From positions 12,586,001 to 12,650,000 of the forward strand of contig OZ024765.1 of assembly GCA_964016885.1 (NCBI GenBank): a DNA stretch of 64,000 nt. Direction: 5' to 3'. The stretch's first letter is position 1, and each line of letters opens with the position of its first letter. Position numbers and translations under genes: made by a program. Shown one piece after another: positions 7,037 through 63,574 of the stretch. Below the pieces are notes generated by a model. The model was not told where the DNA came from, ran no database searches, and was given only the letters and a program-made list of their open reading frames with translations. The stretch comes from Eledone cirrhosa. Its lineage: Eukaryota.

Positions 7037-7230
7037 GTTTTAATATAGATGAGATTCTACAGGACTAGAACTGTTTCATTCTTTAGAAATCATCAGGGAT
7101 TCCTGATGATTTCTAAAGAATGAAACAGTTCTAGTCCTGTAGAATCTCATCTATATTAAAACCTTTATACTCTGCTATGTATTGAGTACCTTACTTACTG
7201 TGGTTACCTCCGATTCAACCCGGAATAACG
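7037..7230 (+). mobile_element. Fold-back hammerhead element, family H1 (Penelope pseudo-LTR-like), in (TA)n
   Basis: About 60-bp inverted arms centred near 7099, then a unique tail with TATTGAGTAC. (TA)n on both sides. Near-identical copy at 21330-21520. Confidence 0.7.
7096..7148 (+). ncRNA. Type I hammerhead ribozyme (H1)
   Basis: GGGATTC-CTGATGA-TTTCTAAAGAAT-GAAA-CAG(TTCTAGTC)CTG-TA-GAATCTC. Stem I 7 bp, minimal stem II, stem III ACAG/CTGT, GUA triplet. Confidence 0.7.
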
Positions 7231-7289
7231 TATATATATATATATATATATATATATATAAATAAGTACCCAGTTCCACCCTGTTAGGC

Positions 7290-7478
7290 GGTCGTTCCGG
7301 TGCCACGTTAAAAAGCATTCAGTCCACGCTGTAATGTGGTCGGTATTAGAAAGGGCATCCAGTCGTAGAAACCAAACTAATACAGACCCATATGAAAGTC
7401 ACCTGTCCTGACCAGGCTAGTCTCTCAACGTGACAACGTAACTAACCTATGCAGGCATGGAAAATAGACGGTAATGAA
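7290..7478 (+). mobile_element. SINE family B 3' half
   Basis: GGTGCCACGTTAAAAAGCA...CTGTAATGTGG...AAGGGCATCCAGTCGTAGAAA...GCATGGAAAATAGACG, as in 50235-50625. Confidence 0.6.
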
Positions 7479-8329
7479 GGTTTATATATATATATATACA
7501 TACATACATACATACATACACACCTGTTCCTTTAAAACCTCATGTTAGAATTTGAAACATTGGCTACTATTTCTAGCAGGTCAAACGAAACGACCTCACC
7601 ATAGCGGCCTTCCTCCATCGTGCGCAGTTATGATTACGGTATAGACGAAAGGAGAGGCTTGTACCGATTATATCGACCTTTCAGCGAGATCGATAAGTTT
7701 ATATAACTGTGCACACACACACACACACGTTATATATATATATATATATATATATATATATATATATATATATATACACACACACACACACACACATGGT
7801 AGAAGTCTCCTGAAGTTGCCACTGTCTCATCCGTGTCAAGGAGTTCACTACTACTACTAGACTCAACTGACCTTAGTCCACGTAGCAGTAAATAAGTGGA
7901 ATATATATATATATATATATATATATATACACACACACACACACACACACACACGTACACGAGTGTAAAATGTTCTGTAAAAAAAGATCGGTTCTAAGTA
8001 CTAGTTCCGAGAGATCTAAATGGAGTCTGCTGTAGTGTTATTATAAACTTAGAGGGATGGTTCATTTAGATTGGCTGGCAGCATTGCTTGAACACCACAC
8101 ATATATATACACATATATATATATATATGTGTGTGTACATATATACATACAGGCGTAAAGAGATTCTCTCTACTCTAGAATAAATAAATAAATATATGTA
8201 GGTTGTTTAAATTCTCTAACAAAGAAACAGGCTGGGTTTATAAAAAAAGAAAAAAGCATTAGATTCTTTCCACCAATACGTGGTCGTAGAGGGGGTGCAG
8301 AGATAATGAGAATAGTGAGAGAGGGTATA

Positions 8330-8558
8330 AGTTATTTAGGCACAAGGCAAGCAAACCTTATGGGACGGGAAGGGCAAAGTTGATGAAAATCAACCTCAGT
8401 ACTTGATTGGAACATTATTTTATCGACCTGATGAGGATAGATTAAAAATGTAAATTTAACTTCGGCGGGATCTGAACTGAGAATTTGTAAAGAGCTAGAA
8501 CGAATACCGCAATGGCATCTTATCAGAAGCTCTAGCAATTCTGACAGTCCACCGCCCT
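8330..8558 (-). mobile_element. tRNA-derived SINE, family A (diverged)
   Basis: TAGGCACAAGGC, TTTTATCGACC, GGCGGGATCTGAACT and CCACCGCCCT match the reverse complement of family A. Confidence 0.65.
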
Positions 8559-9237
8559 TAATTCAGTGTGTATAACGCCGACAAGAGGGTGGGTGTGTCG
8601 ATGATGAATCGGGGTGGAAGGTCAAAGGGTAAATCGAGTTATGCTTGGCGTGAAGGTGGGTGGTAAAATTAAGTGAAAAAAAACAACAAAAAAAACTGCC
8701 AGTTTAAATCTTACGTGTCTGAGCAAGTTTATACCGGGACAGATTTTGTTTTTTTAAAACCATATCTATCTGGCCTTCAGCTACACACACACAAACTTTA
8801 CAAATACAGAAACGCATACTGCTGTGCACTAAATATTTACAACTAAAATAATATAGATTAACACGCAAAATTACATCTATACAAACAGGCTTACACACAT
8901 ACACACTAATGCGTGTAATACTAAATTCTTACAAATATAAATTCACTCATACATACAAACATTAACACGCAAATTGTCTGCAAACAGCTTACGCATACAT
9001 ATATATATATATATATACATACATACATACACACACACAAACCTCAATATATATAATAGGGGTTGACATATTCAGACACACAACCAAAGCTCTCCACTCA
9101 GGTCAACAGGCTAATAGATTTAACAGTAACCCATCTCCATCCATTAAAACAATGAAGCAATTATGAAATACCATAACGTCGCCGTTAGGTTTGCATACTG
9201 ACACTGCTGTCAGTACAAGATATACATTAGCTCTCTC

Positions 9238-12200
9238 TATATATATATGTATGACACATATATATATATATATATATATATATGTGAGTATGTATACATG
9301 TATACACACATATATATACACATATATATATATACACACATATATATACATATATATACATATATATACATATATGTGAGTATGTATACATGTATACACA
9401 CATATATATACACATATATATATATACACACATATATATACATATATATACATATATATACATATACATACATATATATACATATACATACATATATATA
9501 CATACATATATATACATACATATATATACATATACATACATATATATACATATACATACATATATATACATATACATACATATACATACATATATATACA
9601 TATACATACATATACATACATATATATACATATATATACATATACATACATACACATACATATATATACATATATATATACATATATATATATACATATA
9701 TACATATACATACATACATATATATATATATACATATATATATATACATATATACATATATATATATACATATATATATATACATATATATATACATATA
9801 TATATACATATATATATATACATATATATATATACATATATATATATACATATATATACATATATATATATACATATATATATATACATATATATATATA
9901 TATACATATATATATACATATATATATACATATATATACATATACATATATATATATACATATATATATATATATACATACATATATATATATACATATA
10001 CATATACATATATACATATACATATACATACATATACATATATATACATATACATATATATACATATATATACATATACATACATATACATACATATACA
10101 TATATATACATATATATACATATACATATATATACATATACATATATATACATATACATATATATACATATACATATATATACATATACATATATATACA
10201 TATACATATATATACATATACATATATATACATATACATATATATACATATACATATATATACATATATATACATATACATATATATACATATACATATA
10301 TATACATATATATACATATACATATATATATATACATATACATATACATATACATATACATATACATACATACATACACATATACATATACACATACACA
10401 TACATATACACATACATATACACATATATACATATATACATATATACATATACATCCATACACACATACATCCATACATCCATACATCCATACATCCATA
10501 CATCCATACATCCATACATCCATACATCCATACATACATACATCCATATATACATACATCCATATATACATACATCCATATATACATACATCCATATATA
10601 CATACATCCATATATACATACATCCATATATACATACATCCATATATACATACATCCATATATACATACATCCATATATACATACATCCATATATACATA
10701 CATCCATATATACATACATCCATATATACATACATCCATATATACATACATCCATATATACATACATCCATATATACATACATCCATATATACATACATC
10801 CATATATACATACATCCATATATACATACATCCATATATACATACATCCATATATACATACATATATATATACATACATCCATATATACATACATATATA
10901 TATACATACATCCATATATACATACATCCATATATATATACATACATCCATATATACATACATCCATATATATATACATACATCCATATATACATACATC
11001 CATATATACATACATCCATATATATATACATACATCTATACACATACATATATATATATATACATACATCTATACACATACATATATATATATATACATA
11101 CATATATACACATACATATATATATATATATACATACATATATACACATACATATATATATATATACATACATATATATATACATACATATATATATACA
11201 TACATATATACACATACATATATATATATATACATACATATATACACATACATATATATATATATACATACACATATATATATATATACATACATACATA
11301 TATATACATACATACATATACACATACATATACATACACACATACATACACACATACATATACATACACACATACATATATATACATACATATATATATA
11401 CATACACATACATATACATACATATATATATACACATACATATACATACATATATATATACACATACATATATATATACACATACATATACATACATATA
11501 TATATACACATACATATACATACATATATATATACACATACATATACATACACATATATATACACATACATATACATACACATATATATACATACATACA
11601 TATATACATACATACATATATACATACACATATATATACATACATACATATATACATACATACATACATACATACACATATATATACACACATACATATA
11701 TACACATATATATATACACACATATATATATACACACATATATACACACATATATATACACACATATATATACACACATATATATACACACATATATATA
11801 CACACATATATATACACACATATATATACACACATATATACACACATATATATATACACATATATATATACACATATATATATACACATATACATATACA
11901 CATATACATATACACATATACATATACACATACACATATACACATACACATACACACATATATATACACATATATACACATATATATATACACATATATA
12001 CACATATACACATATATATACACACATACACATACATATATACACATACACATATATATATACACATACACATATATATATACACATACACATATATATA
12101 TACACATACACATATATATATACACATACACATATATATATACACATACACATATATATACACATACACATATATATATACACATACACATATATATATA

Positions 12201-61958: not shown

Positions 61959-62227
61959 CTATGCGAGCAAGACAACCACTCTTGCCTCAAGTGGGAAAAC
62001 CCCCGTCCAAACCCATGCAAGCGTGGAACACGGACGTTAAACGTTGATGATGATGATGATGATGATGATGATGTTGTTGTTGTTGTTGTTGTTGTTGTTG
62101 GTGGTGGTGGTGGTGGTGGTGGTCCTGATATATATATATATATATATATATATGCCTATCAGTTTCACAATTTGTCACATAATATTATAACACTGTTATC
62201 TGATTACACACATCCTTGTTGATACAA

Positions 62228-62493
62228 CCACAACCACCACCAGCACCACCACCACCACCAGCACCACCACCACCACCACCACCAGCACCACCACCACCAC
62301 CACCACCACCACCACCACCACCACCACCAGCACCACCACCACCACCACCACCACCACCAGCACCACCACCACCACCACCAGCACCACCACCACCACCACC
62401 ACCACCACCACCACCACCACCACCACCACCACCACCACCATCACTGACACCACCCCCACCACCACCACCACCACCACCACCACCACCACCACT
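62228..62493. repeat. (CCA)n microsatellite
   Basis: Direct inspection. Confidence 0.95.
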
Positions 62494-62815
62494 AAAATAA
62501 AGTACCAGTAATGTACTGGATAATTGCTGGTTGTATCAACAAGGATGTGTGTAATCATTTGTACATTATTCTATGTACTATACATGCACCTTTGATGAGT
62601 TGTAGTGTACCTGAGCACTGTACACAATAATTTCATTATTATTATTATTATAAAGTAGAAACAATTAATATCATTGATATATATATATGAATGTATATAC
62701 AGTGTATTTTGCAATACACTGTATGCTTAATTAAAAGCATTTTGAAGACCTTACGCTATTGTTTTAAAGTAGTGACTAAGTCACTTACTTCTATTTTATA
62801 TATATATATATAAAT

Positions 62816-62966
62816 GAAGTAATTCCATCGGAAAAGTCCAGGAAAAAAGAGTGCTCTATGTATGCAACAGAGCTTAATTATTATTATTATGTAATAAACA
62901 ACATAAGGCAATTATTCCATTTAAATGGAATAATTGCCTTATGTTGTTTATTACATAATAATAATA
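62816..62966 (-). mobile_element. Fold-back element, family H5, lacking the ribozyme core
   Basis: Perfect palindrome of about 85 bp centred at 62922/62923, plus tail GAGTGCTCTATGTA..ACAGAGCT. Confidence 0.65.
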
Positions 62967-63275
62967 TATATATATATATATATGATGATATATGTATATA
63001 TGTATGTATATAGGTATATATATATATGTTTATGTGTATTTATGTATATATATATATATATATATATATATATATATATATATATATATATATATATATA
63101 TATATATATATATATATGTGTGTGTGTGTGTGTATATATAAAAATATATATGTATATATATGTATATGTATATATATATATATATATGTATATATATATA
63201 TGTATATGTATATGTATATATATATGTATATATATATATATATATATATATATATATATATATATATATATATAT

Positions 63276-63574
63276 GAAAAAGTATGACCCCGATGGCAGA
63301 GCTCAAGCCGTTTCGACGGCTATTTCTGGACTAAATTAATTTTTAGCCTGGTGAATAAATAGCTGAACTTGTAAAGGAGGTACTTCCTTATATGGGAAGA
63401 TTGTAGTTTATTCACCAGGCTAAAAAGTCTAATTTAGTCCAGAAATAGCCGTCAAAACAGCTTGAGCTCTGCCGTCGGGGTCATACTTTTTCCTATTTCC
63501 CACTCTACTACTCTAAGTATTGAGTACTCTGGTGCGTTATGGTCCATCTGGTTCCTTACCACATTTCCTTTGTT
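63276..63574 (+). mobile_element. Fold-back hammerhead element, family H2 (degenerate core)
   Basis: Homologous to 39941-40266. The minus-strand core reads ACCTCC-TTTACAA-GTTCAGCTATTT. Confidence 0.7.

Follow-up and report, generated by a model that had tools for sequence, protein, structure and literature searches.

The window analysed here, 64,000 nucleotides of Eledone cirrhosa contig OZ024765.1 (assembly GCA_964016885.1, positions 12,586,001 to 12,650,000 of the forward strand), raises the question of what has filled its (TA)n tracts with short elements of eight families, labelled H1–H7 and H9, all of which carry a hammerhead ribozyme motif. An earlier note on this DNA had taken them for a population of non-autonomous, TA-targeting retroelements. 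We consider it very probable that the window instead holds the insertion scars of at least six autonomous families of Penelope-like elements (PLEs) of the Hydra clade, together with two protein-free derivatives, H6 and H7, presumably moved in trans. In the window, H1, H2, H3, H4, H5 and H9 are present as 3' ends of protein-coding PLEs that lie in (TA)n, shortened from the 5' side and often in fold-back form. Some 21 element pieces account for 5,173 bp, or 8% of the window, and commonly share a layout in which a (TA)n tract is followed by an inverted arm, a centre, the hammerhead, a unique tail and a second (TA)n tract; this fold-back shape with its one-sided tail, present in most elements, had been overlooked in the earlier note.

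Hammerhead motifs and their cores

Both strands of the window were searched with a descriptor of the type I hammerhead (CUGANGA, stem II, GAAA, stem III, UH, stem I), which gave 11 matches in its strict form and 12 in its relaxed form, compared with means of 0.01 (maximum 1) and 0.25 (maximum 3), respectively, in 100 block-wise dimer shuffles. The motifs are real, as had been proposed from inspection, and self-cleavage is predicted for them. The descriptor matched every hammerhead previously placed in H1, H3, H4, H5, H7 and H9, and its three extra matches, all on the minus strand, were the inverted partner arms at 39202, 39590 and 46803. The motifs previously assigned to H2 and H6 are also ribozyme motifs, although their core is of the U3-A8 type (UUGACAA, UUGAUAA) rather than CUGANGA, and the window copies (cores at 40043 minus and 40088 plus for H2, and at 55924 minus for H6) are partly degenerate. 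A U3-A8 descriptor gave no match in the window, because stem II has a mismatch or a deletion in the H2 copies and the first stem III pair is broken in H6; genomic copies of both families carry the intact motif. Searches of the window for G3-C8 and A3-U8 core variants gave no matches. An Rfam e-value scan of the window had no hammerhead family among the best 150 of its 345 rows; those 150 were TA-repeat artefacts of microRNA (miRNA) models below the cut-off.

Intact cores were counted in the 197 of 220 genomic loci that could be parsed, and since these are young best matches the counts show presence rather than selection. C3-G8 cores were intact in H1 (28 of 29), H3 (28 of 28), H4 (23 of 27), H5 (21 of 23), H7 (22 of 22) and H9 (25 of 25), and U3-A8 cores in H2 (21 of 23) and H6 (17 of 20); one diverged H6-type unit has a C3-G8 core. 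Loops III of H3, H4, H7 and H9 are short palindromes, a feature described for hammerheads thought to act as dimers (PMC4209133).

Genomic copies and target

The genome searched comprises 3.0 Gb. A 33-nt pattern of the H1 core had 9,375 exact matches in it and a 29-nt H6 pattern had 396, the reversed control giving none in either case. A TA run followed 142 of the 146 3' ends found (195 loci, with H3 and H9 outside this count), which bears out the (TA)n targeting suggested previously; the window itself is rich in (TA)n tracts and satellites. An inverted copy lay upstream at 14 of 30 unselected H1 loci, at 17, 16 and 11 of 30 loci for H2, H3 and H4, at 13, 19 and 16 of 25 loci for H5, H6 and H7, and at none of 25 loci for H9, the query for which was mostly upstream sequence. 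Shared 5' extents varied between zero and more than 1,500 nt, the length to which the loci were limited. Between 38900 and 40300 of the window, H3, H4 and H2 crowd one TA tract within 1.3 kb, and similar pile-ups were seen at many loci; each insertion seems to leave fresh target DNA.

Protein-coding partners

Six families are joined elsewhere in the genome to open reading frames (ORFs) for reverse transcriptase (RT), GIY-YIG endonuclease or both, with Hydra-clade motifs. The suspected link to PLEs is thus borne out, while the description of the elements as non-autonomous fails for six of the eight families and fits only H6 and H7. In H2, an untranslated region (UTR) of about 660 nt leads into the endonuclease ORF, and a same-strand upstream match to PLE protein was found at 12 of 30 loci; for H3 such a match lay at about 950 nt in 5 of 30 loci, and for H9 at about 985 nt in 6 of 25. 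The queries in this test were ORFs of the same genome, including those linked to H2 and H3. No upstream PLE protein match was found at the best 30 H1, 30 H4, 25 H5, 25 H6 or 25 H7 loci. The one match among the 30 unselected H1 loci, to GIY-YIG at L165, was dropped as belonging to a neighbouring family.

In longer stretches, H4 occurs as an ORF between two pseudo-long terminal repeats (pLTRs) at L298 and L299, the unit measuring about 4.2 kb at a single locus, and H9 has the same arrangement at L296, with 4.05 kb, again at a single locus. Upstream of H5 lie pieces of RT, linker and endonuclease (L292, L293, L204), and the H3 unit spans about 2.7 kb. Tails also run straight into ORFs, at L165 (H1, 480 open codons), L088 (H2, at the ORF start) and L109 (H3, 464 codons). 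H2, H3, H4, H5 and H9 are linked to proteins of the Hydra-clade type, in copies that carry frameshifts. For H1, a profile of the L165 fragment and 22 of its 23 homologs aligned end to end with a Pfam-confirmed RT and GIY-YIG protein (HHalign probability 96.5%, E 8.5e-10).

Hydra motifs were present wherever the fragments cover them, one H9 cysteine excepted. RWR or RWT, together with DKT, was read in H1, H2, H3 and H9, the fragments of H4 and H5 not covering these sites; the CxCX5C linker in H2, H3 and H4, with another residue in place of its third cysteine in the single H9 copy examined; and, in the endonuclease, CxxC with CxH in H2 and H3, and CxxC in H5. The RT fragments of the families are 37-55% identical to one another, so that the families are distinct, as the earlier note had held from their dissimilar sequences. 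Their nearest named relatives by BLAST are cnidarian and hemichordate proteins at 35-37% identity, and the published Hydra alignment matches by eye; sequence searches of the PDB gave no significant match.

A genome-wide GIY-YIG search gave 10,595 candidates, and among the 30 loci read, most had a CxxC-type linker or none; other PLE clades are thus abundant in this genome too. Matches to window families near three of these 30 loci were set aside as bystanders in TA tracts. Another hammerhead family, whose core is U3-A8 and whose stem II is long, lies in inverted arrangement beside a GIY-YIG ORF at L056/L158 and L218; two PLE ORFs stand head to head at L158. In the upstream regions of H5 and H1 (L203, L204, L169, L173), 3' UTRs contain or adjoin long (TA)/(TG)-rich stretches.

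Two 3' ends and the fold-back shape

Two sharp classes of 3' end, short and long, were found in the seven families H1–H7, 68-140 nt apart, or about 30 nt apart in H6; H9 showed almost only short ends with the query used. Among 151 inverted pairs from six families (H1–H5 and H7), 139 could be classified, and 133 of these combined one short with one long end. The tail-bearing queries set one end as long and left the partner free, so that independent ends would have given about half long-long pairs. The H6 pairs, 17 in all, gave 12 short-long combinations among the 15 classed. This pairing fits priming on both target strands. H6 and H7 also have the two-end signature, and we found no published match either for it or for the near-strict rule of one short and one long end. 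A short H2 palindrome at 16901-17010, which has two short ends, adjoins a normal copy and may be a local duplication.

The arms also bear on when the fold-backs formed. In 30 H1 fold-backs, two variants occurred in both arms (at five loci), whereas all ten one-arm variants were private, and private one-arm variants together with shared two-arm variants favour fresh formation at each insertion.

The strongest competitor to dual priming is that the inverted arm arose by snap-back of a single complementary DNA (cDNA) at a local hairpin, the short end being set by endonuclease resolution with no second priming. Such snap-back would account for the variants that the arms share and for the clustering of centres at natural hairpins. 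The first 100 H1 matches listed include 17 close inverted pairs, of which 12 have a spacing of 36-68 bp, at the 5' border of stem I, and 59 of 144 H2 match starts fall within stem II; the tail has indeed been ascribed to endonuclease-mediated resolution (PMC8557442). However, short ends are also found in copies that lack an inverted arm, many centres have deletions or filler rather than the clean hairpin expected, and the PLE studied in vitro used two start sites and extended both strands (PMC11167929). We therefore regard snap-back as somewhat unlikely. The genomic data cannot fully separate it from dual priming, and its adoption would alter the priming and joining steps rather than the identity of the elements.

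A conserved hairpin in the tail

Between the two 3' ends, seven families carry a bulged hairpin of the form RCUC, inner stem-loop, UU or UA bulge, GAGYRC. Its outer pair is A-U in six families and G-C in H5, and its first inner pair is U-A in H1, H2 and H5 and C-G in H3, H4, H7 and H9, with one inner pair mismatched in H4; the hairpin is thus conserved, with covarying changes on both sides of the stem, and is a candidate recognition signal. Pairs were counted by parsing, because automatic alignment put H1 and H4 out of register. The hairpin was parsed in 29 of the best 30 H1 loci, 23 of 26 H2, 22 of 25 H5, 25 of 25 H7 and 11 of 30 H3 loci; 17 H3 loci were without the motif, as expected of short-ended copies. 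A single locus showed it for H9; in H6, the GAGCAC half alone is retained. A hairpin descriptor gave 15 matches in the window, all inside hammerhead elements, compared with a mean of 0.36 (maximum 3) in 200 shuffles, a control that is partly circular since the descriptor was built from the same data.

As an independent check, six published Hydra consensi were compared by eye, and the hairpin appears whole in Hydra-2_Amil, Hydra-1_Ajap and Hydra-2_Ajap and in part in Hydra-1_Amil and Hydra-1_Crog; by the same comparison it was not seen in Hydra-1_Obim. We found no published account of it, and the word 'hairpin' is absent from the main text of PMC8557442; Repbase, Dfam, earlier PLE papers and the supplements of a 2026 preprint may cover it. 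We tentatively suggest, as a possibility for which the case is not yet the stronger one, that this RCUC-stem-loop-stem-UU/UA-GAGYRC hairpin, found from corals and sea cucumbers to E. cirrhosa, is the signal bound by Hydra-clade RT-endonucleases, setting two flanking starts, one per target strand, and that H6 and H7 retain it and owe their integration to the same reaction. If this were true, the sequences themselves would be direct evidence for PLE machinery as the mover of animal retrozymes, and the hairpin would serve as a minimal RNA handle for TA-targeted insertion.

Protein-free families H6 and H7

H6 and H7 look protein-free and may have been moved in trans. The H6 unit is non-coding and about 320 nt long; its tail joins its own start at 12 of 25 loci, and direct tandems have cores repeating at 321 and 323 nt. 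The first 100 of the 396 exact H6 cores included ten inverted pairs, all within 434 bp, and two direct pairs at 302 and 319 bp; no long multimers or arrays were seen in the loci examined. H6 thus has the makings of a retrozyme (a non-coding monomer of 150-450 nt, a type I hammerhead and head-to-tail repeats), which the remaining families do not, being linked to ORFs (H1–H5, H9) or having a unit of 1.85 kb (H7). A 323-nt H6 stretch folded with z = -7.6, a value obtained with a TA tract and flank included, and its lowest-energy fold is without the hammerhead. In H7, the unit is about 1.85 kb, open frames in two copies reach at most 115 codons, the tail reads into the element's own upstream region at L297 and L303, and the copy at L250/L291 begins exactly at the tail/upstream junction. 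Endonuclease matches near H7 at L297 and L303 were dropped, lying on the wrong strand or in another element.

Both families might still be pLTR-only or deleted pieces of autonomous elements whose full-length copies were not sampled, given that the best 25 loci per family were read out of 3,272 and 2,218 candidates, respectively. This we judge unlikely. The tail-to-own-start junctions and regular core spacing of H6, the short distances between its paired cores, and the two H7 loci at which the tail enters its own upstream region, with a third starting at that very junction, all argue against it.

Proposed mechanism and remaining alternatives

We propose the following course of events. A tandem copy would be transcribed through the hammerhead-bearing pLTR, as the PLE literature suggests. 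The RT–GIY-YIG protein would then bind the RNA near the bulged tail hairpin, which is seen in the sequence 3' of the hammerhead, and, by analogy with the chemistry of the anole PLE in vitro, would nick both strands of (TA)n and prime cDNA at two fixed internal sites flanking the hairpin. The cDNAs would stop early, often at the hammerhead stems or nearby hairpins, and presumably be joined head to head, giving the anatomy observed: (TA)n, short arm, centre, long arm, (TA)n. The RNA copied would mostly be uncut by the ribozyme, and the short palindromes would be formed anew at each insertion and would mostly be dead ends.

Several observations weigh against parts of this interpretation. The ORF link of H1 comes from one locus, by downstream read-through that does not reach the endonuclease, and a 7-kb pair of H1 copies (L301) held no PLE ORF and contained a helicase-like insertion instead. 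In the Hydra-type fragments, Pfam did not recognise an RT domain and matched GIY-YIG weakly. Placement in the Hydra clade, which we regard as probable, draws on motifs and on comparison by eye with references. Six of the 139 classified pairs are exceptions to the pairing rule (two short-short and four long-long). A single centre junction is found in 28 of the 30 best H1 copies, which one amplified fold-back master could also give. Finally, one finding that favours an uncut template, the lack of a 5' truncation peak at the predicted ribozyme cut site (9 of 536 match starts), in line with the uncleaved RNA template of PMC11167929, is weakened in that many of the 536 starts are truncated by the start of the query and the loci were picked with hammerhead-containing queries.

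The view closest to the earlier note, that all families are short non-autonomous hammerhead retroelements of fixed length, akin to retrozymes or to short interspersed elements (SINEs), draws on the 40 best H1 copies, which are 194-bp units 98-100% identical, on several H4 copies that begin at nearly one 5' point, and on the lack of an ORF in H6 and H7. It is very improbable as a general account, because ORFs are linked to six families, at several loci each for H2, H3, H4, H5 and H9, for which it is refuted; in addition, the centres and 5' extents of unselected H1 copies vary, and tails read into their own 5' ends only in H6 and H7. That the elements are miniature inverted-repeat transposable elements (MITEs), with terminal inverted repeats, a TA duplication and incidental hammerheads, would suit the palindromic shape and TA flanks and is scarcely credible, being refuted by the links to RT and GIY-YIG ORFs and by the 68-140 nt tail on one arm only, with centres that vary and eight unrelated sets of stems around one conserved core.

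This set of loci bears on the choice of template by PLEs, on the origin of inverted copies with a one-sided tail and on the mobiliser of animal retrozymes; it offers a near-strict rule on ends, a candidate hairpin and young, high-copy families suited to in vitro tests. Caution is also called for in annotation, where palindromes of this shape can readily be mistaken for SINEs, MITEs or miRNA precursors.

Features of the window

Table 1. Hammerhead-bearing elements and remnants in the window (positions within the window)
Element	Position	Strand	Details
H1 fold-back	7037..7230	+	126-bp palindrome and 68-nt tail; hammerhead 7096-7148, core 7103, predicted cut after 7141; tail hairpin 7169-7189
H2 short palindrome	16901..17010	.	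3' hammerhead half only; both ends of short type (exception)
H2 fold-back inside stem II	17116..17305	+	Long end on plus; tail hairpin 17234-17259
H1b subfamily copy	20085..20216	-	Truncated at 5' edge of stem I; core 20208, predicted cut after 20170
H1 fold-back	21329..21522	-	Long arm minus (tail hairpin 21394-21374), short arm plus; core 21469
H2 fold-back inside stem II	21540..21720	-	Tail hairpin 21611-21586
H3 fold-back, two whole hammerheads	39012..39425	-	Cores 39202 minus, 39329 plus; tail hairpin 39095-39069
H4 fold-back, two whole hammerheads	39490..39896	+	Cores 39590 minus, 39706 plus; tail hairpin 39813-39834
H2 fold-back, U3-A8 cores	39941..40266	+	Cores 40043 minus, 40088 plus with stem II deletion; tail hairpin 40194-40219
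H7, 3' end of ~1.85-kb non-coding unit	45020..45386	+	Core 45139; tail hairpin 45250-45311, long loop
H3b fold-back	46622..46996	-	Cores 46803 minus, 46904 plus; tail hairpin 46705-46679
Degenerate H1-like remnant	49102..49166	-	
H5b fold-back	49964..50215	-	Plus-arm core mutated at 50120; tail hairpin 50022-50000
H5 fold-back	51765..52045	+	Cores 51859 minus, 51879 plus; tail hairpin 51973-51995, G-C outer pair
H9, 3' UTR and hammerhead	54904..55378	-	Core 54974; no tail in window copy
H6, ~1.3 units of ~320-nt non-coding repeat	55762..56151	-	U3-A8 core 55924; long stem I 55859-55955; first stem III pair broken
H2 fold-back inside stem II	57332..57535	-	Tail hairpin 57404-57379
H5-like remnant	57606..57661	-	
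H6 3' remnant	62690..62797	-	
H5-like short fold-back	62812..62963	-	Tail hairpin 62873-62851
H2 fold-back, degenerate core	63275..63574	+	Tail hairpin 63502-63527

Repeats of other kinds share the window with these elements. A fragment of long interspersed element (LINE) RT at 45547-46554 on the minus strand (Pfam RVT_1, E 3.8e-17) is, we assume, RTE-like, and the repeated 3' fragments of another non-LTR element, in tandem and with a zinc-finger-like end, at 29748-31064 and 47718-49106 are presumably L1/Tx1-like. A repeat of about 290 bp with a tRNA-like head, probably a SINE, occurs at 33668-33926, 50227-50519 and 55476-55769 with 92-95% identity; ARAGORN found no tRNA genes in the window and called none at these repeats. 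Long satellites lie at 9238-13994, 34051-36009, 40316-44235, 58298-59366 and 59601-61959, with periods of 20-40, 49, 33, 48 and 112 bp, and several of their units look derived from SINE pieces. Outside the window, L301, L153 and L302 contain bystander fragments of a gag-pol-like LTR retrotransposon and helicase-like fragments, the latter of which we take to be of Helitron type.

Comparison with known systems

The earlier note could not tell whether the families were already catalogued. Their kind is known: the Hydra clade of Craig et al. (2021; PMC8557442) is described with RWK, DKT, a CxCX5C linker, CxxC, CxH, hammerheads and (TA)n insertion, and has a member in Octopus bimaculoides, Hydra-1_Obim; an inverted 5'-truncated copy with a one-sided tail is there given as typical of PLEs. 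The anatomy, TA targeting, hammerheads and U3-A8 variant (here in H2 and H6) are already published. The present families share with that clade a C-terminal GIY-YIG domain after the RT, RW[KR] and the other protein motifs, and a type I hammerhead near the 3' end. They differ in comprising at least six further families, as divergent from one another as reported above, and in tails of 68-140 nt compared with the 30-40 bp described (PMC8557442). Published Hydra elements are generally shorter than 3 kb; here H3 spans about 2.7 kb, and H9 and H4 exceed 4 kb at single loci. The Hydra cores listed in File S2 of PMC8557442 all start with C, unlike that of H2. The published hammerhead of Hydra-1_Obim is unlike any of ours, and no match to a 13-nt piece of it occurred in the window or in any locus retrieved. 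In Octopus vulgaris, a curated annotation reports 31 recently active PLE families, and the words ribozyme and hammerhead are unused in the portion of it available to us (PMC13282606).

Cervera and De la Peña (2014) described many hammerhead families per genome, mostly as single motifs from truncated PLEs (PMC4209133). The likeness extends to opposite-strand pairs 100-700 bp apart, to palindromic loops III and to the U3-A8 covariation; the motifs found here differ in keeping a stem III of 2-5 bp and, in several cases, in being without the G10.1-C11.1 pair.

For the integration reaction, the closest system is Poseidon PAc of Anolis, which extends both target strands from two RT start sites bounding the tail, on uncleaved RNA (Frangieh et al. 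2024; PMC11167929). Two internal starts that define a tail, extension of both strands, AT-rich targets and a hammerhead whose cleavage is unneeded would, on the model proposed here, be common to both. PAc belongs to another clade and starts in an AC-rich stem-loop within the ORF, whereas the tail here precedes the ORF start (L165, L088, L109) and has a hairpin conserved across families.

The protein-free families have separate counterparts. H7 resembles Chlamys PLEs such as MRC1 in being protein-free, with pLTRs and head-to-tail insertions; however, these form a green-algal clade and are mostly without hammerheads (PMC8557442), whereas H7 has a hammerhead and a Hydra-type tail hairpin. H6 resembles the non-LTR retrozymes (PMC7229834) in its non-coding unit of about 320 nt, type I hammerhead, long stem I and head-to-tail junctions, and differs from them in being mostly dispersed, as single units or 1.5-mers, in having inverted copies and two fixed 3' ends, and in targeting TA, a combination that is the signature of PLE integration. 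PLEs have been proposed as the mobiliser of such retrozymes (PMC7229834; bioRxiv 10.64898/2026.07.22.740005), and the 2026 preprint ties the two by co-occurrence and by pLTR trees; to this link H6 would add, if it holds, the integration signature itself.

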